Shown: in pieces, positions 16,986 to 64,000 of the stretch | Layout of the letters: the number at the start of each line of letters is the position of its first letter | Numbering within the stretch: position 1 is the stretch's first letter | Assembly: GCF_964355755.1 (NCBI RefSeq) | Contig: NC_092671.1 | Span: forward strand, 15,493,742-15,557,741 | Length of the DNA stretch: 64,000 nt | Reading direction: 5' to 3' | Source: Antedon mediterranea | Taxonomy: Eukaryota; Animalia; Echinodermata | Notes under the pieces: generated by a model | What the model saw: the letters and a program-made list of their open reading frames with translations, nothing else | Database searches by the model: none | What the model was told of the DNA's origin: nothing | Made by a program: the position numbers and the translations under genes

Positions 16986-19527
16986 AAGAGCGGCAAGGCG
17001 TGGCCTACGATAGAAGGGTGTTTCTCCTCTCTCGATGATGTCGTTTAATAATTAAATTTCAATTCTAACTGGCAACTCTAAAAAAACAACATTTGTTGTT
17101 GGCAAATTTGTTTGGATGATTTTTATAACATTTTTAATCCCAAATGCAGTATTAAAAGCACAATTAATGTAGAAAAAGCAATATATATCTCATCTCAACT
17201 TTACTAGTCTACTGAATTAAAAATGTAGGCAGCTATGTACACTTTCAAATGAAAGTTTTTAAAGTTTTGTAACTAACTTTTTAAAGATTACTTTTAAACA
17301 ATTTACACTGTAATCCGCATGCAAATTAGATGATTTTGTACTCTTTTACGATCTTTTCTTTAAAAATAAAGTATTTGATTTTAAAGTGTCTTCTGGTTGC
17401 ATTCTTACATTTGCGGCAAAGTCAGTTATAATATATTTAAATAACATACAGAGTGATGCTCTGCCTGTAATTTAAAGAAAAAATTGCTTTTAATATTGAT
17501 TGATTAACATAATCAATATTTACGATACCAGTATATGAGGTGCCTGGTAGTATATGCATATTAGGTGCCTGGTAGTGTGTATGAGAAGCCTGGTTGGTTG
17601 GTTTCCATGTCTGAAGTAGGCCAAAATATTACTAATTATGAGAACTAAATTTATACAGTCAATTATATAATATTTAGGAAATGGTGTACTGTTCTACCGC
17701 ATCCAATAAAATCCGGAATATGTTAGGCCTATATGTTTTTAATATATATACCAGTTGAGGTTGAATTTATTTCTAAATGAACACACAAATGATTCACACT
17801 ATTCAATTTTTCGCTTTGAGACAACAAAATACAATACAAATACAAAACAAAAAGTACAAAATCCACGTAGGCCTATAGTATCTAACATGGTGCTAATAAT
17901 ATGGTAAAAACTATTAGGTATGGAGTCGTAATAATATGATATTAAAGCTGAATGATTTATCAAAGATGTTACGCTCAAGAAAAGACATAGAAGATGGAGT
18001 AAACATTTCTTAATTTCTTCATTAATCAACACAGAAAACTACAGGTAGTATGGTAGTTTATGATAGTTCATATTTTGGTATGTTTAATTCCACAGACCAT
18101 ATATTAGATGCAGGGGCTGTCATATCATAATAGTCAGCAGTGCTGATTTCAAATGCCTAATTGTATATATATATATATAATATATACACACAAACATCAT
18201 ATTTTCGATAGCAGATTAACTTTGCCCTGTAAACTCTAAAAGAAATGTTTACTCCATTTTCTACCAAAATAACAGGAATGTGCACGTAGAATTTAACTTG
18301 AGCCATACATGTGAGCACTAACTTGAATGCAGCTTTCCCCTTCAAGAACTGAATATTCAAATGTTTCTTTTGTATCATAAGTCGCTTTATAACAAATAAC
18401 AACATACAAGAATATTAGCATCTGTGGATGTCATTTAATATACAGTTACATTTCAAAACTGTTGTCAAACTGAAGAACCATAGATAAAGTTTTTATAAAT
18501 TCAAATAATATATTATTTTTATCAATGCTAAAAGATAAAATGCTATATTATTACACTGTGGGAGGAACCCTATATTTTTTTACAAATAAATTCATACCCC
18601 TATAAGAAAAAAAAACAATGCAAAATAATAAATGCTATGCAATATATATTATAGTTCTTTTTAAATAAACTCATATTCTATCATTATTATATTACTGTAT
18701 CATGGTTTAAATAATAAAATAAAAATAATATTCAGAAAGGATTATTTTCACTGTGTTAAAGTAATATTAATCATATTTGAAAGGTTTGGCATTTGATACA
18801 TAATTTAAATACTAATATGGTGATCATTCGAGGTCAAATTACATAAAATAAGTGATAAAACATTTCATTTTGAGAGTACAAGGTCAATAATTTATAATGT
18901 TCTTCACCCCTTTTTAGTCGATTATCAAAATTAATACTAAAACATTGTTACAAAGTAGAAAGTATTGAAACAAGAGAGAGATAGTTGAAATAATTCTACA
19001 CAATATATTAATAGTTATACTTAGTATTTAGAACAATTGTGTGTACAGTCGACTACTATCTTGACTGATATAATATAATTATTATGTTGGTTTGGGCATT
19101 ACATTACTAACTGCCATCAAGACAGGTCAAATTAAGGTCAAGTCAGGTCAAAACATGTCAGTCGCACTATAATAAACTATAAAAAATACTGCAATCAATT
19201 CCATGAAATTACAGTAAGTATAAAATGTATGAGTCATGCATTGAGTAAATCTACATCAGGAAAGCATTTGAAATACACACACGAAAACAGTAAAACATAC
19301 AGTACTTTATAGAATTATTACAATATAAATCTACCAGGAATCCATTACAATATACTAAAAATGAATTTACATTTTCAATATATATTTTATAAATTGTAGA
19401 TAAACTCAAGAAATATGTGTCCTACATTAATATTAATTATAATACTTCTTTTCCAACAAGGACTGTGTTCCACTAACCATCTGGAAAAGAGGCCTTAATA
19501 TCAATGTGAAAGTCGAATCAAATGTTA

Positions 19528-19654
19528 GGCATCACTTTTAAGGAAGTATACATTTCCAAGTTTGTCTCCGCAAGCGATGAATTTGCCGTGTTGTCTTTTG
19601 GTGGCTGCCATACTGGTTACAGGGGCCAGACAGTAAAACTGACCAATCTGAAGT
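19528..19654 (-). CDS. TEP1: TEP1 last coding exon (IGQFYCLAPVTSMAATKRQHGKFIACGDKLGNVYFLKSDA*)
   Basis: Acceptor ttcag|. Matches human C-terminus LAVGDVQGNVYFLNWE. Stop TAA = plus 19528-19530. Confidence 0.8.
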
Positions 19655-22600
19655 ATTTAACAAAAACCATATTAGTCATAGTGTACTAGAAACAATTGAA
19701 GACACCAGGGTGCGTATCCAGCATTATAGATTAGGGGTGGAGGGGCTAAATATTTCATAAATGATAAAAACGATCTGCCGGGTTGCAGAAGTAGTCATTA
19801 TCTTATTTTAAAAAGACATGGCTGTTCAATTTTAGGGGGGGGGGGGGGAAGCCTGATTAGCCCTGCCTAAATTCGCGCCTGTCACACTAACTAAATACTA
19901 TTCAACAAGTCTACAATTAAAGAAAATATTTGGAACAGACAAGCAGATTAGTTACATTTTAACGGAAAAAAAATGTATACAAAAAAAAAGGGAAAAAAAA
20001 GAGGCAAATCACAGATATCTGTGTCTGTATATGCCCATATAATATGGACACAATGACATCAATACCATATTTTGTCAAACTAATTTTATAGTGTGGACAA
20101 AGGTTAAGAGATTCAAAAGAATTTTTTTTTTTTCAAATTTTAAATAGATAAATTTTGTCTAGATACCAATACTTAAACTTATTGTTTACACCATAGAGAT
20201 ATGTTTACATGAATCCAAAAGTAATGTAAATATTAAATGTAGTATCTGTATCAAATAAAAACCAAAAATAATATTGCTGTTGATGCTGTTTTTTGCCAGA
20301 ACATGATAATGAATTAATGCAAATCACACACTTAAATCAATAGTAGCCTACCTGTGAGCGTGAAGCTTTAGACCATAGCTTTACAGTTCCATCAAGTGAA
20401 GATGTTACATACACATCACCAAGGTTCACCAAATCTGTAACAGCACCTTTGTGGATCTGGGAACATTCCTTTAAAATAAATTGGAGTATTATTATTTCTT
20501 AAATAATTCAAATACAATTCTACAGGAGAATTTCTCCTTCGGGACACCCTTACTCATGGGAAACCCCTATTAACAGACTCTTTCAACTGAAACAAACGAG
20601 GGAAAACTTTATGTTTTATCACTTCAACCAACCTCTATTCAGTGGACACCCTTATATTAAGGGACACTATGTTGGAACCGGGAGATGAATCCTTTTATAG
20701 AGTTCTATTCTAATAAGGCATTCGCTTACACACCACAAAACTGATGAATAAGCGCCTTCGATAACTCCAGAGGACGCCATATTTACAAGGTAAATCGGGA
20801 CAAAAAATTCCATCTAGGCCATAGCGCAGTGATGAAAACTTACATCATCGCGCTAGCCTATATGGAAATTGTTGTCCCGATTGACCTTGTAAATATGACG
20901 CCCTCTGGAGTTATCGAAGTTGCTTATATGCACAGCAGTTTAGCATTAAGATGCATTAACACTTGCTGTTCATCAATCTCTTTCAGTGTACATGATACAA
21001 CAACATTTCATTTTCAACAACATTATTAATCTAAACACTTACAATTGCAGTGTGCTCTATCGAGTCTGTATCTGAAACTACAAATAATTCTCCTGAATAG
21101 TTGCCAACCATAAAGACAATATCCTTCTTGTGACCACTGGACATATCGATGTCCACCACTGTTGCCCACTCTGGGTCGGAACTGTTACTTAGATTGAAAG
21201 ACAGTAATATCTAAAAATGGACAAATTAAGTTTGTTATTGTGTGAAAAAAAAGAAATTAATGAAGAGAGGTATAAAATTATAACCTTTTAATTATACATA
21301 AAAAAGGTAATGTAACCTTCAAAATATGCACAGAAAAGGGGATTAGGTTCTGCAGAATTGAATAAATAAAACATACTGTACTGACATTGATATAGCCCAT
21401 AATAATAACATGCAATTTAGTTTAATTTGTATGCTCAATATCCATTTTGATACATTATATTTTAACCAAATATTGTGCTGTGAGGTGTAACATAAATGCA
21501 CTTTTATATGCACTTACTGGTTTCTCTCCTTGAACTGCAAGTTGGGCATCACATGATACTACAGCAAAATTCTCTTTGCTCCACATTTTGAGGCCTAACA
21601 TTGAATCATTAATGCTGTTAAAAACAAAAAAAAGAACATTAATAGCTGTTCATTATAAATATATTGTTTAGTGTCAAGTTCAGATATGTTTATTGTTACC
21701 ATTGAATTTCATCTAATCACTTTATGAGGAATAGCCTAAGGCTCAAAATATGGAGGAACAACTGGCAGAAATGACAGATGTTGTTGGTTGCATGTTATTG
21801 AACCAACCTCAAGGTCACATGTGGAGTCTGAACTCGTGATGTATATAACATACACCAGTGCACAGTATGTTATTCATAAACCGATACAATGAAACACAAT
21901 ACAGTAGATACATTTGCCTAACTATTTCCTTTTTCCTGACTATTATATTGAACATATTGTAACGTTGTATTTGTGTGAGGTTGTTGTACGTTACTTGAGT
22001 GGTGGATTCAACGCACTCCCGCCGTAAATAAAAAATCTGCTAAATCACTTTATCATAAATGTTATCTTTATTCAAAAGGGTGTTGATATAAAAGCACATA
22101 TAATATATCCAGTCTACCTGGATTAATCAAAGTTGATTTAAATTTTATTTCTATAATATGTGATCCAAAAATCAGCTACAAAACTCCAGTATATATCAAA
22201 GATACTACGGTAATCTATTCTCTAACTTTTCTTTAAACTTTTCTTATCCTCCTTGCCAGTACATCCATATTTAAGAAACGATCCTATTTAATATGCATGT
22301 ACTGGGAGGGGGACTATTTGGAAAGGGGAACATTTTCCTTGATGATGAGGAAAAAGCAATTAGTGATAAAGGGTTGTTGACCTGATGGTCAGAGTGTTAC
22401 ACTATCATACTTACCCTAAGTTGTCCTTAATTATCTTGCACTCTCTTAGTTTTCCATTAATGGTATTGTACACTTTGATTACATTATCACTGTACAACAC
22501 ACCAAGATCTTTACCAGGCAGAGGGGACATGGCTACAACTGAACACCCATTATTAATCATGGATGATTTCCTACATTGTAAATAAACAGTTTTTTATTTA

Positions 22601-25600
22601 TGCAAAATATAAATCAAAGCAATTGAACAATAACAATACTAATGATTTGTAACATGCACTTCTCTCCACCATTATTGTCGAAGACACAATTTTCAAATTT
22701 AGGGAAATGTAGTGTAATACACCATATCCTATCCCCTTCACAGTTCATATAGAGTATAAATTGGCCGATAACTGTTGAATTTGAATCTTTAATGTTGCAT
22801 GTAATGTGTATTGTGGAACATGAACCTGATATACTATGGTGTTCCTTGCCAAAAAGGCCTGAGGAAAATTTAGATTTCTCTTATTAAACTTGTAAACCTA
22901 CCTCAATTTATAAATTCCACTGATGTTAAGCACATTCCAAAGGGTTACAGCTCCCATGTTGTCTCCTATGGCAACCAGATTATTTTCAATGAAGCAAGTA
23001 GCTGTCAAAGCTTTTTCAGAAACCTTAATTTAAAAAAAAAAATTTTTTTTAAATAAAATTTAGTCTACTAGAGGGTGAGCTCGCTCCCCCTCTAGGAAGT
23101 GTAGACGATGGTTCTCGGAATGATAATGTTCTCCTTATACGTTTTCTGTCGGTTACCATTATTGAAAATGCTTGACATTCGTAAAACTAAACTACTTTGT
23201 TTCACAGTGTTTTAGATGATTAATAACATTTTAAAGTATAGTTTTTATTGTTTGGTAGGGCCCTTTGGGGAGGCGGAGGTCATTTGAGGGAGGTGCTTAT
23301 TCGAGGGATATATGTTAAATTTTTTAGTTTTAATAATATGGTAATACATTTATAATCAAATGAAATCCTCTAATACAGTAGATATGAAAAGTGGTAAAAA
23401 AGAATAACAAATGTGGGGGGGGGGGGGGGTTATTATTCAAAGTGATGTTTTATTGGAGAGGCGTTTATTCAAATGAATACCATCCTAATAATTATTAATA
23501 CATTATTTTATTTAATCATCTTTTGAAACTGCCGTAACAGAGTGGGCCCAAGAAAGAAGACATTACGGCTTGCAACATGGGCAGACATCTCGGTCCTAAC
23601 GGGACACAGGAAGATATAGCCTACAGTTATTCCTGCAAGCTTCCTCAATAAAACTCAGCTATCGGGATTTCACTCGAAAAATGTCTTATCATCAAATCTC
23701 CCTATGTAATTTTATAATACTATTCCCCACAATATATTCTGATTCTTTATGACATATATTTAATTTGATCTTTATTAATTTGCAGTATAATTTAACTACT
23801 GTACCTTCACACCTAAAATAAACAAAAAACTGAAATGGCTATGACTAATGGCCAACTTAAGCTGCACTCCTACTATCTGATTTTTTTTTCATCTTCCAAA
23901 GGGACACTGTATTGATTGATGGAAAGTGCCTGTTTCCAGTCACCTTTAGGGTCAAATCTATTATTTTAACTGCTCCCTTGTGTTTAAAAGAGAGAAAATA
24001 TTTGAAACTAAGGTTGTTGCAAGGTGAACTTATCTTAAACCCGGAAATAACTTTGACCGGGAAGAATTGAAATTGAGAAGAAAATCTAATGTTGAAATCA
24101 TAAATGTTGTTAAAAAACTCTTTATAATATCTTCCTAAGATATAAATATGGAACAATAGCGTCGGCGTGCACACTAATGTTATCAAATCTACGTTTCGCG
24201 GTACATCTCGGATAGATAAGGTAGGTATCCAAGGCGGAGATTTGTACCGAAGTTTTTGCATTGTGCTCGCCTATGTCAGAATTAACCATAATTTATATAT
24301 AGATATGTCTGCTTGTATTTCTACATTACACTTGACATTTAATTTTCACTAGGTTTTACCTTTTTTTTCATCTCAATTAACATCCGGTCACTTTCACCCA
24401 TTTTTATTTATAAATGCCATTTGCTTAGCAATGGATGCAAACTGGGGATTTTTACTCCAAGAGTTTTAATATATTATCAGTCTGTGGTCCATGGGTTGTT
24501 GTTTTTATATTAATATAAAATATATTGTATTTTTGTATATGTATACTGATTATGAAATAAAGAATAAATGAAGTGAATATATAAATCTAGAGTAATGAGA
24601 ATTTCGCTTCACTATAAAATATATGTTCAATTTAACGATTTAGCTTTTTGCTTACAATATATGTCCTATATGTTACGTTTGACCATTAAAAATATTACTG
24701 CAATTAGTGCACAAATGGCAATTCTAATTGAAAAAAAAACCTATTTACATGTATACACGAGTGTTAATATGGATTAGAATACTCCATTAGGTTAATCTTG
24801 GCAATGGAAATTGACCTTTTACAATATACATGTACACAAGCATGCTACAATTACGGCATGATCATAAAGCTAACAGATATATCTATAAACAGAGGACTGT
24901 AAAACACACCTTTATACAGGCATCTTGGACTGGATGTGTGGATTCTTGTTCTGTCAAGTTCCATACAGCAGCTTGTCCATCTCTAAAATAAATGTAATAT
25001 TTGAAATATAATAAAATCTACTAGAATATTAAATAATTTCAGATCAAATTGTAAATAATTTGAAAATACTGTATATATATATATATATTGAAAAGGATAA
25101 GTCATGCACTTTTGATTCTTGAAAATAATGTAAAAATAGATTAAAAAGTTGAATTCTTAGTAGATGTGTTCTGACCTTTATTTGGAGTTACATAATATAT
25201 TGTTTCTGTGGTCTAGGTATGAATGCCAGGCTAGTGACTGGAGGTCATGGGTTCGAATCACACCCAATAATTAAGTGTTTTCAATATGTACTTTGCATTA
25301 ATATGTACAATAGTATGCAAGAGTATGGCAAACCTCTGCTCAATTAATCAAAAAGATATAAAAAGACCGTACCTTCCTGTAGATATGGCAATAGTACCAT
25401 CAGGTGAGAGTGCCATAGCTGTGACCTCTCCATTATGACCTTGCAAAGGTTCAGTGTCCGCATCCACTTGATATTTCCAAAACTTGATGGTCTTATCCAG
25501 AGATGATGTCACTAATTGACCATCCTTGCCCACTGCCACAGATGTCACTCGGTCTGAATGTCCAGTAAGAGTGGATAATTCATTACCCTGTTAAAAAAAA

Positions 25601-28600
25601 GGAAAGCCAGGCTTTGTGGATGATGATCATACTAATTTTATTTCATTCTTCATGGAAATTTGTTGCTACATGATATATATAATACATACATACATACAAT
25701 TCAAAATATAATTTCTAAACAATACCTGCAAAGGCTTCCAAAACTGAACGGCGCCTCCATCAGTTGCAATTGCAAGGAGGACATCTTCCATCATCACCTC
25801 TTTGTCTTTCACTTTATCAAGTTTCTTTGTGCTGTGTGTGTCCTTCCATTCATTTACAAGACTCTCTGTTACCCATGATGACTTAATGCTGAAATCATCA
25901 TTCTCAAAATCGAGCAGCTCTGTTTCTTCTATTAAAGAAAGTAAAAATATTTTTATCAATCATTTTTTGTAAGTAAAAAGTATTTTGCAAATTTTTGTGT
26001 GTCACGCAGAATAATTCAAATTTGGTTTTCAAGAAACTGGTAAAGACAACAACAAACCTATTTGAGCTTTGACCCTGATATTGCAGGAATTGATCCTTTG
26101 TTGCTGTGGATTGATAGTTGTAATCTCAACTCCTCTCTTGCTCCAAACTTTTACTGTACCATCAGTACTTCCAGATACAATGCAACCAGACTATAACAAA
26201 TGTAAAATTCTTTAAATTCTGTTCAAATATGAAACGAATACAAACTATTTGAATATGACATACTACTGTATACATACATCAAATGCAACTGAATTCACAC
26301 TGCTTTGATGACCTTTGAACTCCTTTTTCACCTCTTCATATTTCTGCATGTCCCACAACTTCAGGGTGAAATCATTTGATCCTGTGACCTATACAAAATA
26401 ATACATGTTTATATAAAATTATATATATAAAAAGGTTTTTTTTAGTATTTACAAACAAATTATTTTTATTTAAAAAAAGTATTACATATTAACATTTTGT
26501 ATAATGTTAATATTAAAGACCCCTTCCCTGCAATTTTGGACGTTTTTTGGAAAATAATACATATATATCACTTTCAAAACATTAAACCATGTCATTCCTT
26601 GTCTTAAATGTACGTTTTATGGTAAATTATGATAAAAAGTGAGAAACAATGCACTACCTAAGTAGCTCGCGGCGATCGACCTCTCGTGGACGGTCTTAGG
26701 CCTAGCTGGTAAACATCGGTAACGTACAAACATCGTACGCTAGCTATATACCTAGCCTGACGTTGTATAGTTGCAGCATTAATTGTCTTTCTATTTTTGC
26801 CAGACTCCGTTGATACAAATTGGAGAAAACCCGGTATTTTCGCTGAAAAGTTAGGAGTCTTCTATTTGTTTTGGCCTCACGATCGATCGAAAAGTGGGTG
26901 AATTACAGGTGAAAAACAAAAATATCAATCCGCGCGCAATGCATTTTGGGATTTATAGCGGGCCGCTATAATTATTAGAATCGACTTATTTTTCACATTT
27001 TTAACCGTTTAAAGACGAAAAAAGTTATCGCAATAGGACCATATAGTATTATTTTTACATTAAATATAGTTTGTGATCTTAAATTAGATCTAAAAAACGT
27101 AGGGAAGGGGGCTTTAATAGTTTTCATTAATATTTAAAGTTTAAATAGTTTACTTACCACCATATCATCCTTGTCAGACCATGCACAGCAATTTATCCAG
27201 TCTTTATGACATGCATTTAAAGTCTTAATTGGTGGAGCATTGCCGTTCCTTTTCACTAGTTTTTCAGTATCCCATACAAGTAAAGACTATACAGATAAAG
27301 AATAAATGGATATATACATGATTAATGCAAAAAAAAGATGATTCAGCCTTCTACCTGCTAATTTATTGTCGAATCTGAACTGAACATCCCATGAGTTTAA
27401 ATTCATCCCCCATCACCCCCCTTACACCAATCCAGAACAATAAAAGTAAAGATTATTGTTGTTTATTTATTTCACTTATATTAATTATTATAATAACAAT
27501 AACAATAATCATAATAACAACAATTACAATAATTAAAAAATAGTAACTACAACAGAATGACTATAATTTTTATGTGTTTAAATTTTAAATGTAAATATGT
27601 ATATGTTTGTATGATGTAGTATGTTTAAGCGGATATTAACCCTTGATGGCATTTGCAGCAATAAAGAAATTGAATTGAATTGAATTGAATTGTTATAATA
27701 CAAAAATTTGAAATATGCTAATTTCTCTTACCATATCTCTACTTCCAGTGACAAACTTTGACCCATCAGCATTAAAATCAACACAGCTGATTGGAGCAGT
27801 GCAGTTTGTGTAAATTTTACAAAGCTCAGAAATTGAGACCCTGAAAAATCAATATTATATAATGAACATGATTAAAACATATTATTTATAACAGAAATAA
27901 ATTATTACTAAACAGTACACGTAATATTCGGTAATAATGTATGCTAATGATTACAAGAAGATAGCATGAATAAACGGAAAGAAAAATAATGAATAATGTA
28001 GGTGGATAAATGAGATGATTTGAGATTGAATAATGGATGAATGATGATTGCATGATAGACAAGTTTAGCTACCTGTTTGATGGACGTTGTAATGGAATTT
28101 TCCACAAGTAAATTACTGCATTTTCACTTGTAGCCACGACAAAGCGCATTCTTTGACTGTAGGCTCCAGCTAAAAGGGCTTTACCTTCAGCTCCTTGCAG
28201 TTCTCTACTCATGTCACCTGATTTGTTTGTCATCTAAAAAATAATGTCAATAGAGAATAAATTGTATGTGATTTGATATGAAACATTTAAAATCTCAACC
28301 CAAATAATCTCACTTGTTATATTGACAATGTTAACCATTTTGGAAGTAAAATAGATTTTATTTCTTACCTATTGATAGAGATAATGATTACTATATTGTT
28401 AAGTTCTGTCTACACGATGTGATGTGCCCATATATTTCATTTCAATTATTTCGTCTCACATAATAATTATTATCATTATATAATTAAATTATAACAAAAA
28501 AATAACAAACAATAGAGAGAGACAGGATTCCAAAAAGCGAACTAAATCAAACTATCAAGTGGGTCTCCAATATGGACACGATGATGTCATATCACTACCA

Positions 28601-31600
28601 TATTTGTGTATATCTTTACCATATTTGGGCACATCACACTTTTTTTTTCAAACTACTTTGATAGTGTAGACAGAGCTTAAGAATGATATCAACTTACTCT
28701 TAGTTTGCCAGCTGCTGAGCCAGTCAGAATCTCAGGACCATCGGTAGTAGACACCAAACACCAAACCACAAAGTTAACCCTCTCTTTGTACAAACTCTTT
28801 GACCATTCTTCAATACCAGTAGACAGATCAAACAATCGAACCTCACCACTGTGGTAGCCCGCAGCAGCATACTGGCCATATGGACTAAATGACACACTAG
28901 TTGCCCCACCAAGCTCTTCACTCTCAAATGTTGTTACATGTCGTCCCAGTTGCCCAGACCAAATCTTAAAATTAAAAAAATAGCAATCTTATACAAGTAC
29001 ACAAAACCCAATTCACAGGCATAGAAAAATCTATAGAGATGTACATGAACAAACTACAAAATATTATTTTGTAAACCAAAATAAATACCTTAATTTTCTG
29101 ATCATCACTAACAGTAATCAGTTCTTGTCCAGCAGTTGAAAAGGACAATCCATTAATTGGCATAGCATGGCCAGACAGTGTCCCCACCTAAAATATGAAG
29201 AGTAAGCACCTTATTGACAATAGAAAATAAACAATTTTGCATACCTGGCTTGAATTTATACAGGATGAACTGCTTGGAAATACATAATAACAAAGAGTAT
29301 AGAGGTGGTACATTGTGTTCTCAATTAGAAATATTAAGCTCTGTCTACACTATCAAACTAGTCTGACAAAAAATGTGATGTGCACAAATGTGGTAGTGAT
29401 ATGCTCAAATATGGTAGTGATATGACATCATCATGTCCATATATGGGCACCTCAAATTTTGTTGTCACATAAAATTTGATAGTGTAGACAATGTTTTAAA
29501 CAGAGTATAGAGACTTATTAAATAGATGATTTAAATTTCTATTGATTCAAATAATAATGTTTTTAACTGTTTTATACATTCATTTCTTACCTGGGTGCCA
29601 TTGTCTGCAGACCAAAGCTTGACAGCTCCACATAGAGATGCTGAAGCTATGTGACGACCCGAAGGAGAATAAGCCAAGTCACGAATGGCTGAAGTGTGTC
29701 CTCTTAAGATCTTGAAAAAGATATATATACACACTATACAGATGCATGTTAATGTATTTATGTATGTTATATATATATAAGTTCATATGAGCTGCTAGTT
29801 TTTTTAAATTCTAAATCCTATTTCTTGTAATTTTTTGTTCAAACCAAAATATAATGCAAACGAAAATATCAAATAGAATACTTACAGCAAGTCTTTTCAT
29901 GTTCACAATATCAATTATTACAATGGTTGAATCCCAGCCTCCGAATGCAACTTTGTTTGATTCTGGATGTAAGGCAGCACAGTTGATTGGATTTGATGAG
30001 CGGTATTCCCTAAGATATGACCCATCTTTTGAACTCCAGACCATTAACATACAATCCCATGAAACGGACACAAGCAGATTTTCCTTAGCACTATATACAC
30101 AGTTACTCACTCGTCTCTTGTGCTTTGTCATTCGACCAATTCTGCAACAATATCAAGATTCTAATTTATATTGTATTTAAACACAATCTAAAACTATCTC
30201 ACTATTAAACAATACGTGTTTTGGATGATTATAAGTCATTATTAATTATAAAACTATTCCTATATTAAAACATTAACAGGAAAATTTATTCATAATTATT
30301 CAAAATATTTACCTATGGCCTTGGCTGACATTCCAAAGGCACAGTGTGCCATCCAAGGATGAGCTCACCAGATGTGTATTGCCAACAAAGCAGCAATGAG
30401 ACACTGTATTAGAATGACCTGAGAATGACATCAATTCCATGCCTGTTTCCTGCACATATAGCCTGACTGTACAGTCTTGACTGCCAACGGCAACTAACTT
30501 GTTGTTTGGAGACGTGGAAATACATGTGATGTCCTGAAATAAAGTAGATAAAAGTTGTTAGTAACAGTAAATGTTGGTAACAATACAAAATTTTCATAAG
30601 AAATATATGAACACACAACAAATCAGTTTCAGTCAATATTGTATAATGTAAAACCAGAAAAATAAAATATACCTTTGTAAAACCAGGCAATGTTCTGCTA
30701 CATGAATGAACTCCTTCATGTTTATTTTGCCAGATCAACAGTCGTTTTTTCAAAGATGTATCCAGATTCTCGATGACAGGTTTAACTGTCTGATGTACAA
30801 GAGAATCTGAAGATTCATTAATGGCTTGCTGCCATGTAAGAGACGGGATTCCTGCTATGATGTGGAGATTCCTAGAGACAAAATCTTTGAAAGCCTAGAA
30901 AGAAATAGTAATATTATTTGTTTTATTTTTTTCAATATCATAGTGATATGCCATATTTCACAGTGATGTAATGATGTAACCACAAGAAATTAAGTGGTGT
31001 GGTTTTCGCAAGAAAAGGGAACAATCTCTGTTTAAGCCACTGGGTTGTCAAAGGCCTATGTGAAAAAGTGGTCAGGAAATCAAATTCAACAGAATTAAGA
31101 ATTAATTTATGAATAAATAGCATAAGAAGAAATACAATTTTCTTGCTATAAACTTACAGTAACTTGAGGTGACTGAAGAAACTTTTCCTTTTCTCTTTTA
31201 AACTGTAGAGAGTTTGGTTTTCCTTCTCCTAAGAAATCTCCCATAAGTTGTGTTGCCAGGCCTAGTCTGCATTTAGCTTGGACAAAGTTTAGATTACAAA
31301 GAGTAGTGGCTAGGTTTGAGTACATGCCACAACAGGTTAAATGGTATGGTAACTCTGTGAAGGTATGTGATGATCTGCCTTTCCATGTACCATTCCTATC
31401 TGGATCTGCCTGTGTATGGTAAAAAGCTGAAATATACAAAAATAGGCCATTATATTTGTTATGTTTGACTTTTAATATTAAAAACAATACTATTTGGTTC
31501 AGAATCTCACCTGCCAAAAGTCTATGCAGGACCAACTCAAATTCCATTGCGGTTCCTCTTAAGTATCGCTGACGGATTGCTTTCTCAAATTCCCCATGAC

Positions 31601-34600
31601 CAAGGCTAAGACGTCCAAGACTTTAGAAAAAAAAACAAGTAAATAATAATCTACAATTTCCTAATATTTTTACATACGCATACAGTTTGGCAACGCTACT
31701 ACCAACATTATTACGCTAGCTTTGCCGAGATATTTTAATATTTACTAACCCTTCTTCGGCTATCGGCTGTAAAAACGTTTGCAGGCTACGTAAAAGTTGT
31801 CTGTATGTAGCTTGTGGCATTAGATCTTCTGCAGAAAGTTGTACATTCATAACATCGTGAAACTTGTACTTGTTACTATGGAGAATCTTGTGAATGCTCA
31901 GTAGCTGGTGTAGTTCATCTTCATATAGACCTGAAGGAAAAAACATACTTTATTCTAATATGTTACTTTTACAAGGGGCAGTGGTGTAACGCAGAGGGCA
32001 AAGGCGCCTGGTTTAGCACTCCTAAGGGCCCCTCAAACGATGGGTGTTTTTATTGGGACTGCTCTCATGCTCAGGGGCCCCCTAAGCTCCTGTTTTTAGC
32101 CAGTGAGTGCTCATGGCAATTATGCTATTGACATGAACAATAAAGGAATGAAAAAGGATGTGGAATAGTAATCCTAAACAAGAAATTATTTTTCATGAGA
32201 TCAGTAAATTCTTGATACTTGTATACTGTATACATGGTGTGATACATACCGTTCCTGGCACAGACCAATAAACATAGAGATGTTGAGATAGTGTCTTTAC
32301 TGAAGTCATTCTCCAGACGTTGGAAGATGTCTACCAGCAAAGAGCTCACTGTCTGTGACATCGACTTCAACTTCTTTGAAAGCTAAATAATAATGAACGA
32401 AACTATATTACAAACAAGTACAAGTGTTTCTAAACCTTGAAGTGGGGCTACTCTATAGTATCAACATGTAAATTAGTGTAATAAGATACATTGTTTAACA
32501 GCATGTGGATAAACAATTTATTTCATAAACCAGTAATAGTGTAGAAGTCTTGTAATACAGTATGTATAGTAGTACAGTAAATGTGTCAGAAAGGTAGTGT
32601 TATAACTGAGAGGGCTACCCTATCAAAATAAAATGAATAATAGAATGATCTTTGTACCTCCTCAAATACACCAAACAAGCGGATTTCTTCACAGGCTAAA
32701 CTCAGATAAAGCGGCAAGTTTGCTTCGCGTTTAGCAGTCAGTATTTTCAGCTGGTTATTGAAGGGCGATTCGTCAAGAGTCTTTCCATAAACTGATAAAG
32801 TACTGCGAATCATCTCAGCTTTCTCCAATATGTCTAAAGGTGGCAGAGCGATGATGGAACAACTCTCACGTTGCCGCCTCAACAATGCTTTGTGACTTAT
32901 TGAGTTCTCTTGGCAACTCACAACAAAGATGACATCCTATGAATAAAAAGATCTTTATTGGTGAAATGGAAATATAAAAGATTACTGAGGAAAGAAAAGG
33001 AGGAAGACCAAATGCTAAAATGGATGTTGTTTGGGAAGAAGAAGCAGGAGATAAATAAACATAGAAGAAAGCTATTAAAGGGAAAGAAAGATACTGAAAA
33101 TCATGTAAAATAAATAAAATTTATATCTAATTTTAACTATTATTAACTATAAATTAGGATTAGGTATAAACAAAATCATGTAATTATAAAACCTATATGA
33201 AAACTGATACATAAGAACATCTTTATCAAACCTCTGGAATATTCTCTGGAATCCATTCCAGGTTCTTTGGTTGGTTATCATCCTCTAGATCATCTACTCC
33301 ATCTATGAATATTTTAACTGGAGCTGATTCATAGTGGGATGCTGCTCCCTTCAAAAATTCTGAAAACTCTTCACATAAACTTCTGCAAATAAAGCATTCC
33401 ATATGTCCAGAAAACGTAATATAGGAAGGTGCTATACTAAATTTATATATAGTGTAATTAAAAGAAATACGAAACCAATATACAAAATGATTTCTTTCAC
33501 TGCTTTTGCATATCATTGGTTGTATTGTATTCTACAGACAGTACAGCGGTAAGTAAGGTAGATATATCTTACTTATAATTATCTGGAATTCTACGATTCA
33601 GTCCAAAGCTTGAATTAAGTTGAAAGCAGACGTGTTTAAGTAAGCTTGTGATGTTACCAGGTGCTGCTCCAACATAGTGTACAACAACCATATTATGTTC
33701 ATCCTCTAATATACATTCCCTACACTTCTTAGCAAGTGAGGCCTAGAAAATACAAATATTAATCATTAACAGCCTATTTTGTGTGTGTTTGTGTGAAGCA
33801 GCCTGCCATGAGTATAAGGTAATCAGGCCCGTATCCAAGTCCCCCAAGTCCCAAAAGGTCCACTATTTCCTCGGTTGGTATTTTTTCTTGTCTTGTTTAA
33901 CTAAAGACAATATCATTATATATATACAAAATTTACATTATCAATGGTACACAAACAAAAATATGCTAATATAAAATGAAAAAATACCGGTAATTAAATT
34001 ACGGAATCTGAACGGACTACAAACTCGATGTAAAACATGCGCAGTCGATCATGTGACGACAAGCAATAGCTTAGCGCTTCATGTACGCGGTACGCGGTAA
34101 AGTGTTTGCTGGAAATACAGACAACTTAACCGGCGGTAAAGACGTGTCTGGAAATACAGACACTATCGAATACGGCGCCTAAACAAGGGAAGGCCAACTC
34201 AGACAGCGTCGTACGACGCTGTCTGAGTTGGTCTCATCATGAAAGCGTTAAGTTCTGGTGTCCATCGTTCAACTAGCCCAAGCCACAACAGAGAGTCTTA
34301 AATCAGTCTTTAGAACGTCAAATAACGCAAATTTTGCCAGTGCCTTCGGCCCCTGGACCCTGGCCGGGGGCCCTTGGCGGCCCCCTGGCCCCCAGCCATT
34401 GTTGCTCGCTTCGCTCGCATCCCCCCATTATAAATGCTGCATACGGGCCTGGTAATGTATAGACAGGTAGGGCAGAGACAAAGTGTAAATCAGAGAGCAT
34501 GTCTTGTATTTACTAGGCCTATAGTTTCAGAATTGTTCTAACCTTAGAAAGCAAAGAAAAAATGTCACTACCAGTGAATTAATTGTTACTTAAAGCCATA

Positions 34601-37600
34601 TTTCTCATATGAAGGTATTATTCCACATATATTACAATCAAATGTATTAATTACCATAAAGGCAGACTTTCCACATCCTGGTTTTCCAACCACTCCAACC
34701 AAACCACTTGTCATGCTTTTGATGGCAATCAGACTACCTTTCAACTTGTTTTTACGGCCAACAAATTGGCTTAAATGTGATGACATATAATCTTCATGTA
34801 AATCGTTCTCGGATTCCTTTTCTTCTTCTTCGTCTTGGTCCTGTAATTTAATAAAAAAAATAAATGTGTTTAGTAAGTGTTCTTTGAAAACTAGTTCTTA
34901 AATTAGCCCTTTTTTGCAATCAATTTTTACCTTGAAATCTATGAATTCATCTTTTATTGCTTGCCACAAGTTGTTCACGACACGATTTCCAAACTGTTCT
35001 AATCCAGATAAGACTGGCTTACCATCTACAACACCTCCCCATTCACATGGATACCTAACAAAATCAAATGATAACATCAACATGTTTGTTTGTTTGTTTC
35101 AAACTCCATTTCATTTATTAAAATAAAATTCTAAAAGCTTAATTGTAAGAGTTGAAGTTTAAATCAAATATAGTTTTAGTTGGTAGGTTTATATTTGCAT
35201 AATATTTGTATAAAAATACTGTACTTACATATCGTAAACTTCGAGAGGGCTCTTGCGAATTCTTTCCTTTAGATTACCCCAATTGTCATCTGCAGAGAGG
35301 CTGTCATTGCGGAAATCTGATTTCCATTTATCAGGAATTTTGCTTTGAAAAATATTTTGTTGTTTTAATAATCTATTTATATATGCAGTACCTAATTGGC
35401 CAAATTTTGCTTCAATAGATTAAAATAATTTTACAAAACCAACATATACACATGATATTAATAAAGACACAGGGTTTGAACTCTGATAGAGGAATCTTAC
35501 CACCACGTGATTGAACTACAGTTCTAGAAATTAATTTTACTACTTACTCAATTATGGCATCAGTCCTGAAGTAGAAGAATGCTCGACCTACAGCGGACTC
35601 AGGGTTCGCAAGGGCACCATGCTGCATCTCAAGCTCCGTGATTGAGCGTCCTGTAGGATAATCTTTCAACCAATCAAATTCCTCAGATTGTTTGGATACA
35701 TCATATGATTCTGGTACATAACCGTAGCGATTCCCCAGCAAACCGATAAAGAAGTTAGATCGAGAAACTTCACCAAGACATACTTCAATTGATCTGCAAA
35801 AAATCATAATATAAAAATCATGATATAAAAATTACTTTTTTCAGTGCAAAACAATTTATGTTGTGTATTTTTGTGTACAATTTTCCTCAAATAAATGTCT
35901 TTGTATGGAATTGAAAAGATATCTATTGTTTAGCACTTTCAGTTTCTAAAAATAGAGTTATTACTGACCCATTCTGTTTTGCTTCCTGTTCAGTGACACC
36001 CCATCGTAGGTCAACTTCATAGACGTTAATGTGATGTTTCTTTGCTCGTGCCCTTAATTCTGGAAAGACGCACCTTGTCAAAATATCACGTTCCCCATGC
36101 ATGTCACGAAACGTTGAGGAAATAAATACTCTTGCTGTTCGCCACCTAACATGAACAAAATAGCACCACATTAACAATGTGATGTAAATCAACATGAATC
36201 AATTTTTTGTTATTTAGAAAGAAGAAGAAACATTTTAGAGCTGGAGGAAAGCTTTGAAATTTCATTGAAAAAAATGTAGGATTACAGTACCTTGGTGCTT
36301 TGATGACAGATGGTATTGACATTGATCCTTCAGTCTCTGAAGTAGCCGCCATTTTACTTGCTGCCTTGGCAACTGCAGCCTCCTAGTGTAAACAAAAAAA
36401 TAACTATGTTTTTCATTTATTCAAATATTTTTATTCTTGTACACACCCTAAGAAATATCCCCCACCAGCTTTTTTATAAAGACGTCAAAATTCAATTGCA
36501 TAGCTAATAATTATTATTACCAATACCTGTTCTGGCACCAATTTCTGAGCTTTGTCGATGTTCTCCACATGGGTCAACTGTCCACCACCTCCTCGTTCCG
36601 CAATATACCTCAAGATCTGATCACTGTAGCCAGCAATAAAGATATCATTCTCATTCTCTGGCTGTAAATCAGCTAGTCTGTGAGAACAAAACTAACATTA
36701 ATATTCAATTCAATTCATTCCGGATTTTACAATACAAACAAACACATACATCACACATGCTAGACCCGTGGACTCTAACAGTGAACTAAATCGCTTTCGA
36801 TGGGACTTAAACATTTATATTGGCAAGAGATAAAACATATTTACAGTATTTGTATGAAGAATTAAACCTATACTTACCCTGAAGATTTCCTGCTAAGATC
36901 TACATTGACAAAAAGCAAATTGGGGTTGACGATCTTTCGATATTTTTTGAGAAAATTACCAACCAATTTCCCTTGATCACTGTCCATTTTCAAGCCATCC
37001 GAGAGGATTACAAGATTGTCAAGCTGAAATACAGCATACAAAAATAAGTGTAAAGCTCCGGCTACACTATCAAACTATGTGTCAAAAAAATATGATGTGC
37101 CCATATATGGACATGTTGTCATATCACTACCATATTTTGGCATATCACTACAATACTGTATTTGGGCACATCACACTTTTTTGTCACATAGTTTGATAGT
37201 GTAGACAGAGCTTTAGTTATTAAGTTTTTATGTAACTTTGCTGGACAGTTAATGAGCTGGGCATGTTCAGTTAGTACTTTCTTAACTCCAGGTTTAATTG
37301 ACCACTATTCATCATTAGAATGTACAGTATGTGCGGCAGTGGACTTGCAATGATATTGATATTGATGGAAGAATGATCAAGCCTTACTTGCATTCTGTCT
37401 CTAATCATTTCAAAGAATGATTCATCACTCAAAACAGCTTCGCCAGTTGCATCATCTGCAGCAGTCATGACCTTTAAAAAAAGAGTAAGAAACATCAAAC
37501 ATGATACAGACATTGGGTTATACCATTTGTGGAAAGGGGTGTTCAATGTAAATTTTTCTTTTCAAGTTATATTTCGCTCTTTAAGGGCTATTGTCGGTTT

Positions 37601-40268
37601 ATCTAGGTAAGCTAGGAACGAAATAGTCTAAGTATCGTCCTATTGTCTTCATCACTCTATCTTTCCAATTTTCAGGTAGACATTCAAACAAAAAAGACAA
37701 TTTTAACTCTACCTCAGAGCAATCAATGACACTCTTCATATTATCCAAAATGGTTCCTTTCTCAAGTTCAACTTTCATCTGTTGACCATTGGCATAGATT
37801 ATCAATGTACATTCCTCACAAGAGTACTTGCACATGAGACCAAGCAAAACACCAACTTCCAGAACCTGCAATAAAAAAAATATACAATAGTTTAGTCTCA
37901 ATGGAAGAATTTGCCTCAGTCATGGTAATTAATGTCCATTAAGCTATGATCCCAAAATAATATCTTTTTTTAGAACTAGGTACATATATTAACAAAATCA
38001 AACAAGTTAAAACTGCCTCAATATAAATTTATTAACACATGAAAAAGAAAAGAATTGTAACAAAGGATAACATATATCCGTCTCAAAATTGCATAATACA
38101 ACAAATCAGTCAATCAAAGATGTCAACAAACAAAAAGCTATAAAAACATGCCTCCAAAAGCTAAGGTGTATCTACCCTGCCTATGCAGCTCTATTTATTC
38201 ATCATATATTAACATAAATGCTTCATTGGTTGTGGTGAAACCAGTTGAAATAACTTGATTGTTCATTTGTAAGCATATTAAAATTGCTGTATGAATGTTC
38301 AACAACTCAAAAGACATCACATTATTTCTTCAATGTAAATCTCTTATACAATTCTAGTCACTTCTAAAATCTCACCTTTTCCAATAACTATTGTTGGTCT
38401 TTTAGTGCTGTGAGACATCAGTTAATAGCGCTTTATAAAATTATATTATTATTAATATTATTACATACCGACTTAGGTCTTCCAAGTCCTTTTGCTGATG
38501 TACATGGAATTTTCATATGTGCTCCAACATTCAGGAAAATCATGGTGCGTCCTGGGATAGGAGACACGTTATAAGACGTGGCAATCTTGACAGCTGTGTC
38601 TAATGCTTTACGGTATCTCTCCAAGATAAGGACATCATACATTTTTTCTCTATCGGTTCAAAAAGTGGTAGATTACTTTATTACTAATTTATAGCATAAA
38701 ATGTAAGTATATTGGTTTACAAGCTATCATTATGGTTAGAGGAATTAATTATCTTCACACTTTGAGTGGCAAATATGTACTACAGTATGTATGTATTTAT
38801 ATTTATATAACCTGAGATGACAAAGGAATTTTAAACACCCTAAGCACCAATGGATGACCCCAAAATCACTCTCTAGATTTTGATTCAAGAATACAAAAAT
38901 GGGGGTGTATGGTAACCCCCTCTTCCTTGTTTACATACTTGACTATTACTTCTTTTTTCTTATTTTTCTTTCTTATATTGTGTTTTGCCATTTGTTCTTT
39001 CTTCATAGCAGCTTTGATGATTGCTCCTTCTATAGAAACAATTTAAAAAAATACAGTAATAGTTTTTATTATGTCTTGTCATCCTTATCTTCATAACTAT
39101 GATGTATAAACAACACTTCTATCACTAACAAAAGGAAATACTGTACATATTTATGTGTTTACAAAATACAAGTTAGTCTATGAACATCATTTTAATTAAT
39201 GCTGAAAAACAAATGAATGGCTTGAAGATCTTACCGGACTTTTCCAGATCTTGTTGAAGTTGTCGAAGGGCTTCATATGCAGAGAAAAATCTAAATGGGA
39301 ACTGGCGACTATTGACAACTGCATTCTGATTGGTCAGTCTTTTTATGACCCCATCATGATGTTTTTGTGACATACCAGATTGTATCATATTACGAAGATT
39401 CCTCAACATTGCCATGAATGGCAACTTTTTGTTATCTACAAAGATCACAAAACCAAATGTAATTAATTTATTGGAGTAAAAATTTAAATTAATTTAAAAA
39501 TTGCTTTGTATTAGGAGATTATGGCCAATGATACAGTATCAGTAATAGAAAACTAACAATTTACATTAAAATATAATACAACTCTTCCAATACTGGCCAA
39601 ATACGTCTGGTTTTCAGGAAAGTCTGTTATGCTATCTGTCTGTTATCTGGTAAAAATGAATTTGGGACCTGTTTGACCTAAAAAAAAGTCTGTATTGAGA
39701 GAGTTTACTGTATTGATGTTGTAAGCAAATACAGAATTCAAATATTCAGCCATGTTTAAGCCATAGCAACAATTATTAAGTTTTAAAATATCTACCTAAC
39801 AAGCGTTCCCATGTTTTTGCTTTGTTGCCAAACTTTGAAACCTGAGTTTCCCATGTTTCAGGTATTGCCAATTTCATTCTCTTTCCAGCCATATCTGCAT
39901 CCCAAACACCAGTTAATTTGGCCTTATAGAAGCTCTCCAAGTCCTCTGGATACCTGTAAATAAAACAAAACAAATCCATAAATATTAAAATATGAAAAGA
40001 TATAAAAAAACAAGATATACACAGATCTGCATTACATGATTGCCTGCATATGCACCTATAGTTGGATGCCCGCATGTACCTATTTAGACTGATTTTATTA
40101 GCAATGTTTGTTTGTTTTATTCGTTTACCACACACATTTTAATACAAAGTAAGACAAATAATTGAAAGATATAGTAGTAATACAGTGTGTGATAGGTCAC
40201 CAAAATAAGATTGCAAAGAATCTTTAAGTCATGGCCACCAGTTAAAATAAAAATAAAGAAAAAAGTAC

Positions 40269-40304
<36 letters not shown>

Positions 40305-62500: not shown

Positions 62501-64000
62501 AATAACCATTTAAATCAGCAGGAAATCGCTAGCATTAACCAAAATTCAATGCTCTCAGACTGTCAATTCAAGCGTTACTACAATGTAGTTGACCAAAGGT
62601 CTGCCAAAACCAGAAAATATCGTCTGCTGCCATAAATTGTGGTTAATTTATTCACATGGTTTATCTGGTTATTTTTTCGCGCCAGAAACCATGACCATGA
62701 TATCTTGGAATTGTAGTATGGATATCGTACAGTATACTTTATATTTTAAAATATTGCGGCATTGTTTAAGAGGATCCCCATGTGTTTAACATATTAGATG
62801 GTCCCTGCTTTCAAATGTTTTGTCATATAACATTTTATTATTCTACACCATGACATTTATGTTCGTTCAGGTGTTGATTTTTTATACATACTTTCAATTA
62901 CTATAGTTAAATTTATATTGAATATGATTATTGTCTATTATCTATTCTAAAATTGAAAATTTTATCAAAATTTAATTATTTTAGATTAATTATTTATAAT
63001 TTATTAATTAATTACTGTACAGTAGGCCTGTTATGCTATCTTCACTTTGTGAAATCAATTAAATTATTTATTATTTATTATGAAATGATTATGGTTCCAT
63101 TAGATAGTTAAAAGGTTATAAATTATAAATACAGCCATCATCTCTATCTTTGCAGCTTCATGTCTGCATAAATCAATAAATTAAACAGCTTTTCAGATCA
63201 ATGTGTTAAACTTAAAGTCCAATCACAACAATTTCATAATTCCATCACTGAATCGTCTCTGCTACAATGACACAATAAGCCCATGAACATAATTTGAGTG
63301 GGCTTAATCTATAGAAATGATTAGATTGGTGGATCCACCAGCCCTTTCCCTACCCCCTTGAATCCGCCTTTGAGTGAATATCGTATAACCGATTGTGGCT
63401 TATAAATATAGATTAAAATAGTTTACTTGACCTAAAATTATTTAAAAATCTATATTATAATATACAGTGAATTTTGAAAATTAATTGCACAAATTTAGTA
63501 ATTAATTTGTCTGTGCTTGGTATTCATTTAGAATATTCTCATCGTTTTATTTCTTGCAGACTTCTGTACCGTAAGGCTTACAGACAGGAAGTGCGCACAA
63601 TGTACCGAGCTAAGCGAGAATGTTGCTCAGGTTATGCAAGGAGTGGATCGAATTGTATTCGTAAGTACAGTTTGAATTTTACATTTTTAGTTTATAATAG
63701 TTTTTAATGTACTATCCGCTTTATATAAAGCTCTGTCTACACTATCAAACTTGATGTGGCAAAAGAAATGTGATGTGGTGCCAATATATAGACATGATGA
63801 TGTCATATCACAACCATATTTGGACATATGACAACCATATTTGGGCACATCACACTTTTTTTGATAGTATAGACAGAGCTTAAGATTACACTTTGTACAG
63901 TAATGTATTTATAAAACATGATGATATTTTTGTTTTACTTTCAGCTTTGTGTTCTCCCAGTTGTCTACATGGCACATGTATGTCACCAAATAATTGTGAA
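59585..64000 (+). CDS. 5' part of a MEGF10/MEGF11/Draper(CED-1)-family gene: exons 59585..59694 (signal peptide), 60137..60238, 63560..63660 (EMI domain) and 63945..>64000 (first EGF); continues beyond the window
   Basis: [123 protein letters not shown]... This aligns with human MEGF10 [95 protein letters not shown]. The ATG exon has an upstream acceptor at 59574, so a 5' non-coding exon exists upstream. Confidence 0.75.
60830..61760. repeat. Satellite-like array of about 20 copies of a 44-bp unit (TAATCTTTAATATTTAGTCCTAAGTACAGTATTTCATTTTTAATAT) in an intron of the MEGF-like gene
   Basis: Seen directly. The central copies are near-identical and the flanks are degenerate. Confidence 0.9.
63727..63892. 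mobile_element. MITE, same family (full copy), in an intron of the MEGF-like gene
   Basis: agctctgtctacactatcaaac...tttgatagtatagacagagctt. Confidence 0.8.

Follow-up and report, generated by a model that had tools for sequence, protein, structure and literature searches.

TEP1, telomerase protein component 1, is a vault-associated protein of the TROVE/STAND type that is also found with telomerase, and the vault shell itself is made up of MVP (major vault protein). The gene considered here, in a 64-kb window of contig NC_092671.1 of the crinoid Antedon mediterranea, almost certainly belongs to the same family. Mammalian TEP1 binds vault RNA via its TROVE domain and a von Willebrand-like region, and TEP1-null mice have vaults without vault RNA while TEP1 is dispensable for mouse telomerase activity (PMC7916137). 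Two preprints from 2026 describe DUF4062 as a TIR-like NADase family, also called NIR, and report that human TEP1 hydrolyses NAD+ and NADP+ inside vaults in a manner dependent on E1008, mutation of R908 or R976 lowering the activity (PMC13174449; 10.64898/2026.09.04.749371); TEP1 acts as an NADase within the mammalian vault (PMC13174449). Echinoderms have MVP, and vaults of sea urchins are described in the literature (PMC3762200).

Positions 19525-42750 on the minus strand of the window almost certainly constitute a single-copy, intact TEP1 gene with 47 coding exons and a product of 2625 amino acids (aa). By exact-sequence look-up, the assembled protein is identical over 2625/2625 residues to the RefSeq entries XP_071942652.1 and XP_071942653.1, both named "telomerase protein component 1-like [Antedon mediterranea]" and placed on a contig of 40.9 Mb; the two are the same protein, so that any difference between their transcripts must lie outside the coding sequence. 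Translation begins at the ATG at 42750, with A at -3, G at +4 and an in-frame stop five codons upstream in the stop-to-stop translation, and terminates at the TAA at 19527-19525, 19528 being the final coding base. An AG acceptor is present 17 nt ahead of the ATG, and about 1.1 kb beyond the stop comes the first AATAAA/ATTAAA. The coding sequence of 7878 nucleotides (nt) contains no in-frame stop, and its 46 introns, all GT-AG, have a median length of 236 nt and range from 84 to 1886 nt. An earlier sequence-only reading had proposed a complete TEP1 ortholog in an invertebrate genome from peptides resembling human TEP1, and its outer coordinates prove exact, 42750 being the A of the ATG and 19528 the last coding base. 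The genome is indeed that of an invertebrate, a crinoid echinoderm, and all 11 quoted peptide blocks are encoded by the minus strand, in places that agree with one another, including LPSDWIDVAETYQ at 41358-41320, KLPFMAMLRNL at 39427-39395, SRQFPFRF at 39310-39287, RVFISSTFRDMHGERD at 36132-36085, YPCEWGG at 35053-35033, GKPGCGKS at 34687-34664, ESPFNNQ at 32771-32751 and GNVYFL at 19557-19540. The same reading counted 46 exons, one fewer than the model contains. This count and some small border errors aside, both what it observed and how it explained the locus hold good.

Homology searches support the same identity, including the claim of orthology. A rough concatenation of the region from TROVE to NACHT matched 463 proteins, of which the leading ones bear the name telomerase protein component 1, with the best match in Branchiostoma belcheri (E 7e-277, 52% identity) followed by Solemya, Lingula and others; the precomputed Pfam annotation of the top matches comprises TROVE, DUF4062, DUF5920 and NACHT. 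The half of the protein following NACHT, whose highest-ranking matches also carry the TEP1 name, retrieved full-length TEP1 proteins of 2100-2400 aa, among them those of Lytechinus pictus (E 3e-295), of Priapulus caudatus and Tachypleus, and of mammals. Both E-values lie far outside what chance would give. Neither search returned a match longer than 2396 aa, and the 2625-aa RefSeq protein was absent from both yet present by exact look-up, which suggests that the searches are length-limited and may miss very long proteins.

The domain order of the protein is a Ser/Leu-rich N-terminus, TROVE, DUF5920, DUF4062 (TIR-like), NACHT, a winged-helix and APAF-1-type helical region, and WD40 repeats, in agreement with the modules named in the sequence-only reading. 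In a Pfam search of the first 1666 aa, TROVE (PF05731) covers aa 239-643 with 331.2 bits (cut-off 23) and profile positions 20-442 of 442, and DUF5920 (PF19334), the von Willebrand-like region, covers aa 740-848 with 37.6 bits (cut-off 27). DUF4062, at aa 884-978, scores 57.2 bits (cut-off 24.7), the "DUF4062-like" label of the earlier reading being refined here to a TIR-like NADase module (PMC13174449; 10.64898/2026.09.04.749371). NACHT follows at aa 1148-1315 with 31.1 bits (cut-off 26.7), with an intact Walker A motif, GKPGCGKS, at aa 1151 and an intact Walker B motif, IFIDGVDD, at aa 1242. The Pfam family APAF1_C matches aa 1497-1630 above its cut-off with 30.7 bits, and the winged-helix family HTH_NWD1 scores 23.5 bits, below its cut-off of 27. 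Besides Pfam WD40, two propeller families specific to TEP1 are matched in the C-terminal third, Beta-prop_TEP1_2nd (PF25047) with 174.7-275.8 bits (cut-off 89) and Beta-prop_TEP1_C (PF25048) with 92-133.6 bits (cut-off 32). A profile self-trained on the protein finds 18 WD40 blades which, together with three weak blade-like segments in exons 43, 44 and 47, make 21, the same total as the 21 WD repeats of human TEP1 (PMC7916137).

The exon structure was resolved by spliced alignment of 13 TEP1 reference proteins to the genome, using a purpose-written aligner that matches codons, keeps track of phase across GT-AG introns and scores gaps affinely, while ambiguous borders were scored by a splice-site model trained on the gene's own sites with leave-one-out scoring. 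Stop-to-stop translation of the minus strand gives many short open protein-like segments from 42765 to 19528, and tblastn of ortholog proteins against the window gives co-linear minus-strand matches from about 41800 to 19528. Exon borders from 41808 down to 25373 are common to most references, coverage of the references is near end to end (Priapulus 13-2349 of 2356, and two further references, P0124 and P0130, 11-2393 of 2396 and 1-2392 of 2394), and donor and acceptor scores are positive for nearly all 46 introns. Several candidates were discarded along the way. Ab initio exon chaining gave 48 exons and 2751 aa, with exons running into introns, and was replaced after alignment to the 13 references; the 33-nt exon 23976-23944 of that model was dropped as spurious on the same grounds. 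The reference-guided acceptor 25865 scored -6.1 against +7.7 for 25928, with which the RefSeq identity later agreed; donor 38870 had two references and a score of 2.6 against eight references and 8.2 for 38939; donor 37656 scored 1.6 against 5.8 for 37713, and donor 32619 scored -0.1 against 5.0 for 32658. An open reading frame at 24270-23860 in the 1886-nt intron, considered as a missed exon, aligned poorly to a single reference and is absent from the RefSeq model. The sequence-only reading had itself doubted three places: its exon 38950..39038 has true borders at 39029-38939; for 24909..24982 the border at 24982 was right while the other falls at 24910; and the exon it thought might be missing between 23018 and 24909 was not found, there being none between 24910 and 23023, where the next exon begins rather than at 23018.

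In the following account of the exons, all of which lie on the minus strand, the number of references is that of the alignments sharing the border. Exon 1 (42034-42750, aa 1-239) is Ser/Leu-rich, with nine xxLLxx motifs followed by MPIYDF and an acidic stretch. TROVE begins in exon 2 (41674-41808, aa 240-284, 6 references) and continues through exon 3 (41320-41481, aa 285-338, 9 references), which carries LPSDWIDVAETYQ, exon 4 (41114-41210, aa 339-371, 11 references), exon 5 (40890-41026, aa 371-416, 8 references), which contains a charged Lys/Glu-rich insert, exon 6 (40468-40598, aa 417-460, 10 references) and exon 7 (39796-39953, aa 460-513, 11 references), the junctions of these last two having been checked by eye. 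Exon 8 (39235-39435, aa 513-580, 11 references) carries KLPFMAMLRNL and SRQFPFRF, exon 9 (38939-39029, aa 580-610, 8 references, donor score 8.2) encodes a basic linker within TROVE, and exon 10 (38469-38649, aa 610-670, 9 references) ends the domain. After exon 11 (37713-37865, aa 671-721, 7 references, donor score 5.8), DUF5920 starts in exon 12 (37388-37471, aa 722-749, 8 references) and occupies exons 13 (36878-37023, aa 750-798, 9 references) and 14 (36527-36677, aa 798-848, 10 references), and exon 15 (36291-36382, aa 849-879, 11 references) is a linker. The DUF4062/TIR-like domain starts in exon 16 (35969-36145, aa 879-938, 11 references), with RVFISSTFRDMHGERD and R892, and runs through exon 17 (35548-35793, aa 938-1020), with R960 and the predicted catalytic E993 in GRSITELE, and exon 18 (35229-35342, aa 1020-1058, 12 references) to its end in exon 19 (34931-35054, aa 1058-1099, 10 references), which carries YPCEWGG.

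NACHT begins in exon 20 (34655-34840, aa 1100-1161), placed by spliced alignment and Pfam and holding Walker A at aa 1151-1158, and continues in exon 21 (33573-33742, aa 1162-1218, 10 references) and exon 22 (33232-33382, aa 1218-1268), placed by spliced alignment and holding Walker B at aa 1242-1249, to end in exon 23 (32658-32936, aa 1269-1361, 10 references, donor score 5.0), which carries YGKTLDESPFNNQ. The winged-helix region falls in exon 24 (32250-32382, aa 1362-1406, spliced alignment), followed by exons 25 (31750-31930, aa 1406-1466) and 26 (31511-31620, aa 1466-1503), each with 9 references; the APAF-1-type helical domain lies in exon 27 (31158-31426, aa 1503-1592, Pfam APAF1_C and spliced alignment) and ends in exon 28 (30673-30894, aa 1593-1666, 8 references). 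The first WD40 blades are in exon 29 (30313-30533, aa 1667-1740), and WD40 sequence continues in exons 30 (29886-30141, aa 1740-1825), 31 (29591-29710, aa 1826-1865), 32 (29089-29187, aa 1866-1898) and 33 (28698-28964, aa 1899-1987), all five placed by spliced alignment and the self-trained profile. The match to the second TEP1 propeller begins in exon 34, likewise WD40 (28073-28233, aa 1988-2041, PF25047 174.7 bits and spliced alignment), and spliced alignment and Pfam place the WD40 exons 35 (27732-27840, aa 2041-2077), 36 (27158-27286, aa 2078-2120), 37 (26278-26388, aa 2121-2157) and 38 (26058-26190, aa 2158-2202). Exon 39 (25726-25928, aa 2202-2269) comprises a WD40 blade and a lineage-specific loop insert, its acceptor being fixed by the +7.7 score and RefSeq identity, and exon 40 (25373-25587, aa 2270-2341) is a further WD40 exon placed by spliced alignment and the self-trained profile. 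Exon 41 (24910-24982, aa 2341-2365) is shared with 6 references, and exon 42 (22902-23023, aa 2366-2406), again WD40, with 5 references and an ortholog-profile match of E 1e-5. Divergent blades make up exon 43 (22415-22570, aa 2406-2458; ab initio prediction, 2 references and RefSeq identity), exon 44 (21518-21614, aa 2458-2490) and exon 45 (21043-21210, aa 2491-2546), the latter two from ab initio prediction, spliced alignment and RefSeq identity, with the self-trained profile in addition for exon 45. The TEP1 C-terminal propeller is matched in exon 46 (20352-20468, aa 2547-2585, PF25048 92 bits), and exon 47 (19525-19647, aa 2586-2625 and the TAA stop) ends the protein with GNVYFLKSDA.

The TIR-like module permits a residue-level comparison with human TEP1. 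Among solved structures, sequence comparison matches PDB 11gz_A alone, itself telomerase protein component 1, over aa 880-1093 (E 3e-66). Mapping of residues assumes that position n of the 11gz_A chain is human n+893, placing the 220-residue chain at 894-1113, and under this offset four of the four named human residues land on the correct amino acids. In the structure-sequence alignment the catalytic glutamate, human E1008, is conserved as Antedon E993, and R908 and R976 as R892 and R960. Since these three residues are kept, a conserved NADase is predicted in Antedon TEP1. The 2026 reports find the catalytic residue in almost all eukaryotic DUF4062 domains, a pattern that E993 fits.

A DUF4062-NACHT-helical-WD40 core is also common to paralogous STAND proteins of the NWD1, NWD2, NPHP3 and TTC41 type (PMC13174449), and the NWD1-like proteins P0197 and P0237 are among the weak matches of the post-NACHT search. 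That the gene is such a paralog instead of TEP1 is nevertheless barely credible and is excluded by the presence of TROVE and the ranking of matches: NWD1-type paralogs lack TROVE, which the Antedon gene has in full at 331 bits; TEP1 orthologs score 1000-1750 bits at 32-50% identity against 145 and 128 bits at 21-23% identity for NWD1, a roughly 10-fold difference; and both propeller families specific to TEP1, PF25047 and PF25048, exceed their cut-offs. A separate question is whether the model wrongly fuses two neighbouring genes, one p80-like with TROVE only and the other a STAND NTPase, as TROVE-only fragments of 450-950 aa, labelled p80-like or TROVE domain-containing, are numerous in the databases. 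This is highly improbable given that the introns flanking the linker exon, between the DUF5920 exon and the first TIR-like exon, measure just 144-145 nt with compatible splice phases, that Priapulus and several sources of metagenomic or transcriptomic data yield full-length orthologs which have the fused architecture and align end to end, and that RefSeq holds one 2625-aa protein.

Nothing was found in favour of a decaying pseudogene or partial copy except the poor conservation of the last propeller in exons 43-45, and the probability of such decay is very slight. It is excluded because the frame is open over 7878 nt, all 46 of the 46 introns are GT-AG with nearly all splice scores positive, and the catalytic and nucleotide-binding motifs are intact; moreover, the divergent region, poorly conserved in all species, has good splice sites and a total of 140 aa against 129-162 aa in the references. 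The reading of the locus as an intact TEP1 gene with conserved functions does have several points against it. Taken alone, exons 43-45 receive no significant support from profiles and rest on splice signals, expected length and identity to a RefSeq model that is itself a prediction; a profile of the divergent last propeller of orthologs, compared with all open frames in 19000-25500, supports exon 42 and not exons 43-44. Human R954, in the BB loop of the TIR-like domain, corresponds to Gly938 in Antedon, at a position that the ortholog consensus shows to be variable among TEP1s in general. The attribution of vault association, RNA binding and NADase activity is in each case an extrapolation from the mammalian protein, and no vault RNA, MVP or PARP4 gene lies within the window (0 Rfam matches).

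Function in the crinoid is therefore assigned by orthology and motif conservation. By analogy with mammals, the TROVE domain and adjacent von Willebrand-like region would bind a small vault RNA and carry it into the vault particle, and the TIR-like domain, activated by oligomerisation, would hydrolyse NAD+ and NADP+ to ADP-ribose (phosphate) and nicotinamide. More speculatively, in line with a comparison to APAF-1 that the authors of PMC13174449 make, the NACHT ATPase may drive this oligomerisation, and the WD40 propellers may serve as a sensing or auto-inhibitory module.

Exon 1 is 20% Ser and 17% Leu, its nine xxLLxx motifs mostly taking the form [N/S]-x-L-L-[S/G/L], and the 30-residue repeats of mammals (TEP1_N) give no Pfam match in the first 1666 aa of the protein even at E <= 1. 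As TEP1_N-type repeats are likewise not seen in the invertebrate and fish N-termini inspected, and PF05386 is listed among the homology matches only for Prolemur and Cervus, these repeats are treated as a mammalian elaboration and not as family-defining. The sequence-only reading had taken the Ser/Leu-rich exon for a replacement of the repeats; its composition and lack of repeats stand, but a lineage-specific replacement does not, comparable N-termini with xLL repeats (NPLL, SSLL, NRLL) being found in TEP1 of Solemya, Lytechinus, Branchiostoma, Tachypleus, the centipede Strigamia, oyster and stingray. In several of these proteins TROVE is immediately preceded by an MPxYD(F/L) block together with an acidic stretch. 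The observed count of LL dipeptides is reached in 8 of 2000 composition-matched shuffles for Antedon, 18 of 2000 for Solemya and 29 of 2000 for Branchiostoma, enrichment over composition being absent in seven other species, and Asn is 4.8-fold enriched two residues before LL across 71 motif instances; the LL enrichment is a modest, partly supported side observation. Mapping has so far placed no TEP1-binding site on the vault shell's inner face (PMC7916137). One tentative and rather doubtful idea is that exon 1 is not simply low-complexity sequence and instead forms an array of a short conserved linear motif, approximately N-[S/N/P]-L-L-[S/G], present nine times here and 5-10 times in other non-mammals, of which TEP1_N would be a derived form, and that the array may provide multivalent docking, for example to the vault inner face.

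Head to head with TEP1 lies a UBXN4-like gene at 46227-51666 on the plus strand, with 11 exons, whose translation is identical over 486/486 residues to the Antedon mediterranea UBX domain-containing protein 4-like and 67.5% identical to that of the crinoid Anneissia japonica. This identity, like that of the TEP1 protein, assigns the window to the Mediterranean feather star A. mediterranea. No Rfam families or tRNAs were detected in the 64-kb window, and hence no vault RNA or Y RNA gene nearby, and Pfam searches of ten flanking open frames gave nothing usable. The plus-strand region 3228-8803 has several open frames with good coding score that encode an acidic Asp/Glu-rich protein without Pfam matches, and is probably another multi-exon gene. 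A plus-strand open frame at 16761-16982, also without a Pfam match, ends in CFTCCSDKDNCN and a hydrophobic tail, which we take to resemble the C-terminus of a glycosylphosphatidylinositol-anchored protein of Ly6/uPAR type.

Repeats are dispersed through both genes and their surroundings. A 115-135-nt repeat containing the 21-nt unit CATATCACTACCATATTTGGG is present in both orientations at 6565-6630, 28563-28684, 29359-29502, 37051-37215, 50145-50266, 50538-50659 and 63779-63900. The UBXN4-like gene and TEP1 introns 12, 31 and 33 hold copies, the one at 37051-37215 folding into a hairpin, and the family looks like a miniature inverted-repeat transposable element or a short interspersed nuclear element. 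Other small hairpin repeats occur in TEP1 introns and neighbouring introns. An inverted repeat at 20748-20927 in TEP1 intron 45, probably a small element of the foldback kind, has 79-nt arms that are 86% complementary and stand 22 nt apart, and a GC-rich segment at 34100-34520 in the 912-nt intron 20, with open frames reading GGQGAAKGPRPGSRGRR and similar and surroundings of 33% GC, may have been inserted there as a transposon or as some other fragment. TEP1 and UBXN4 are separated by a 3.5-kb spacer that holds a tandem array of a 31-bp unit at 44881-45074 with the palindrome GCGCAATTT..AAATTGCGC, and units resembling it lie at about 42900-43150, a little upstream of the TEP1 start codon. One UBXN4 intron contains a perfect tandem repeat of a 48-bp unit (48463-48661, 4.1 copies, 100% identity), which suggests very recent expansion. 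An AT-rich satellite of about 900 bp with a 46-bp unit at 60864-61771 has core blocks of 184 nt that are 97-100% identical, and at 54531-54849 a TCA/CAT trinucleotide is repeated, in degenerate form, about 100 times.

Antedon TEP1 is an ordinary ortholog of low novelty, and because RefSeq already lists the gene by its correct name and TEP1 is annotated across many invertebrate phyla, the locus carries little weight as a discovery and by itself opens no new question. Its modest value is that of a clean, fully resolved crinoid TEP1 model, one possible data point for comparative work on vault function, in which the predicted NADase catalytic Glu, the NACHT nucleotide-binding motifs and about 21 blades are seen to be kept in an early-branching echinoderm.

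The described systems resemble this protein to different degrees. Bacterial DUF4062 NADases (NIR/Swarozyc, Avs effector) have the TIR-like fold family and catalytic Glu in common with it (PMC13174449; 10.64898/2026.09.04.749371), but they are anti-phage effectors of prokaryotic defence, whereas the domain of TEP1 sits in a eukaryotic TROVE-NACHT-WD40 protein, and the two are likened by description only. Ro60 (TROVE2) belongs to the same Pfam TROVE family, in which HEAT-like repeats form an RNA-binding ring and a von Willebrand-like domain comes next (PMC7916137); unlike TEP1, however, it has about 540 aa and lacks the TIR-like, NACHT and WD40 modules, and no Ro60 structure matched Antedon TEP1 by sequence at E <= 0.001. 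From TROVE through to the C-terminal propeller, mammalian TEP1 shows the domain order of the Antedon protein, with about 21 WD40 repeats, the colugo and macaque isoforms being 30-32% identical to the Antedon protein across about 1900-2100 residues. The differences from it are the 30-residue N-terminal repeats, in place of which Antedon has the Ser/Leu-rich region with nine LL motifs, and two lineage-specific loop inserts relative to human TEP1, one charged within TROVE (exon 5) and one in exon 39. The TEP1 proteins of other invertebrates, namely Branchiostoma belcheri, Solemya velum, Lytechinus pictus, Priapulus caudatus and Tachypleus tridentatus, differ from that of Antedon by ordinary sequence divergence, the last propeller aligning poorly, and share the same architecture at 35-50% identity.

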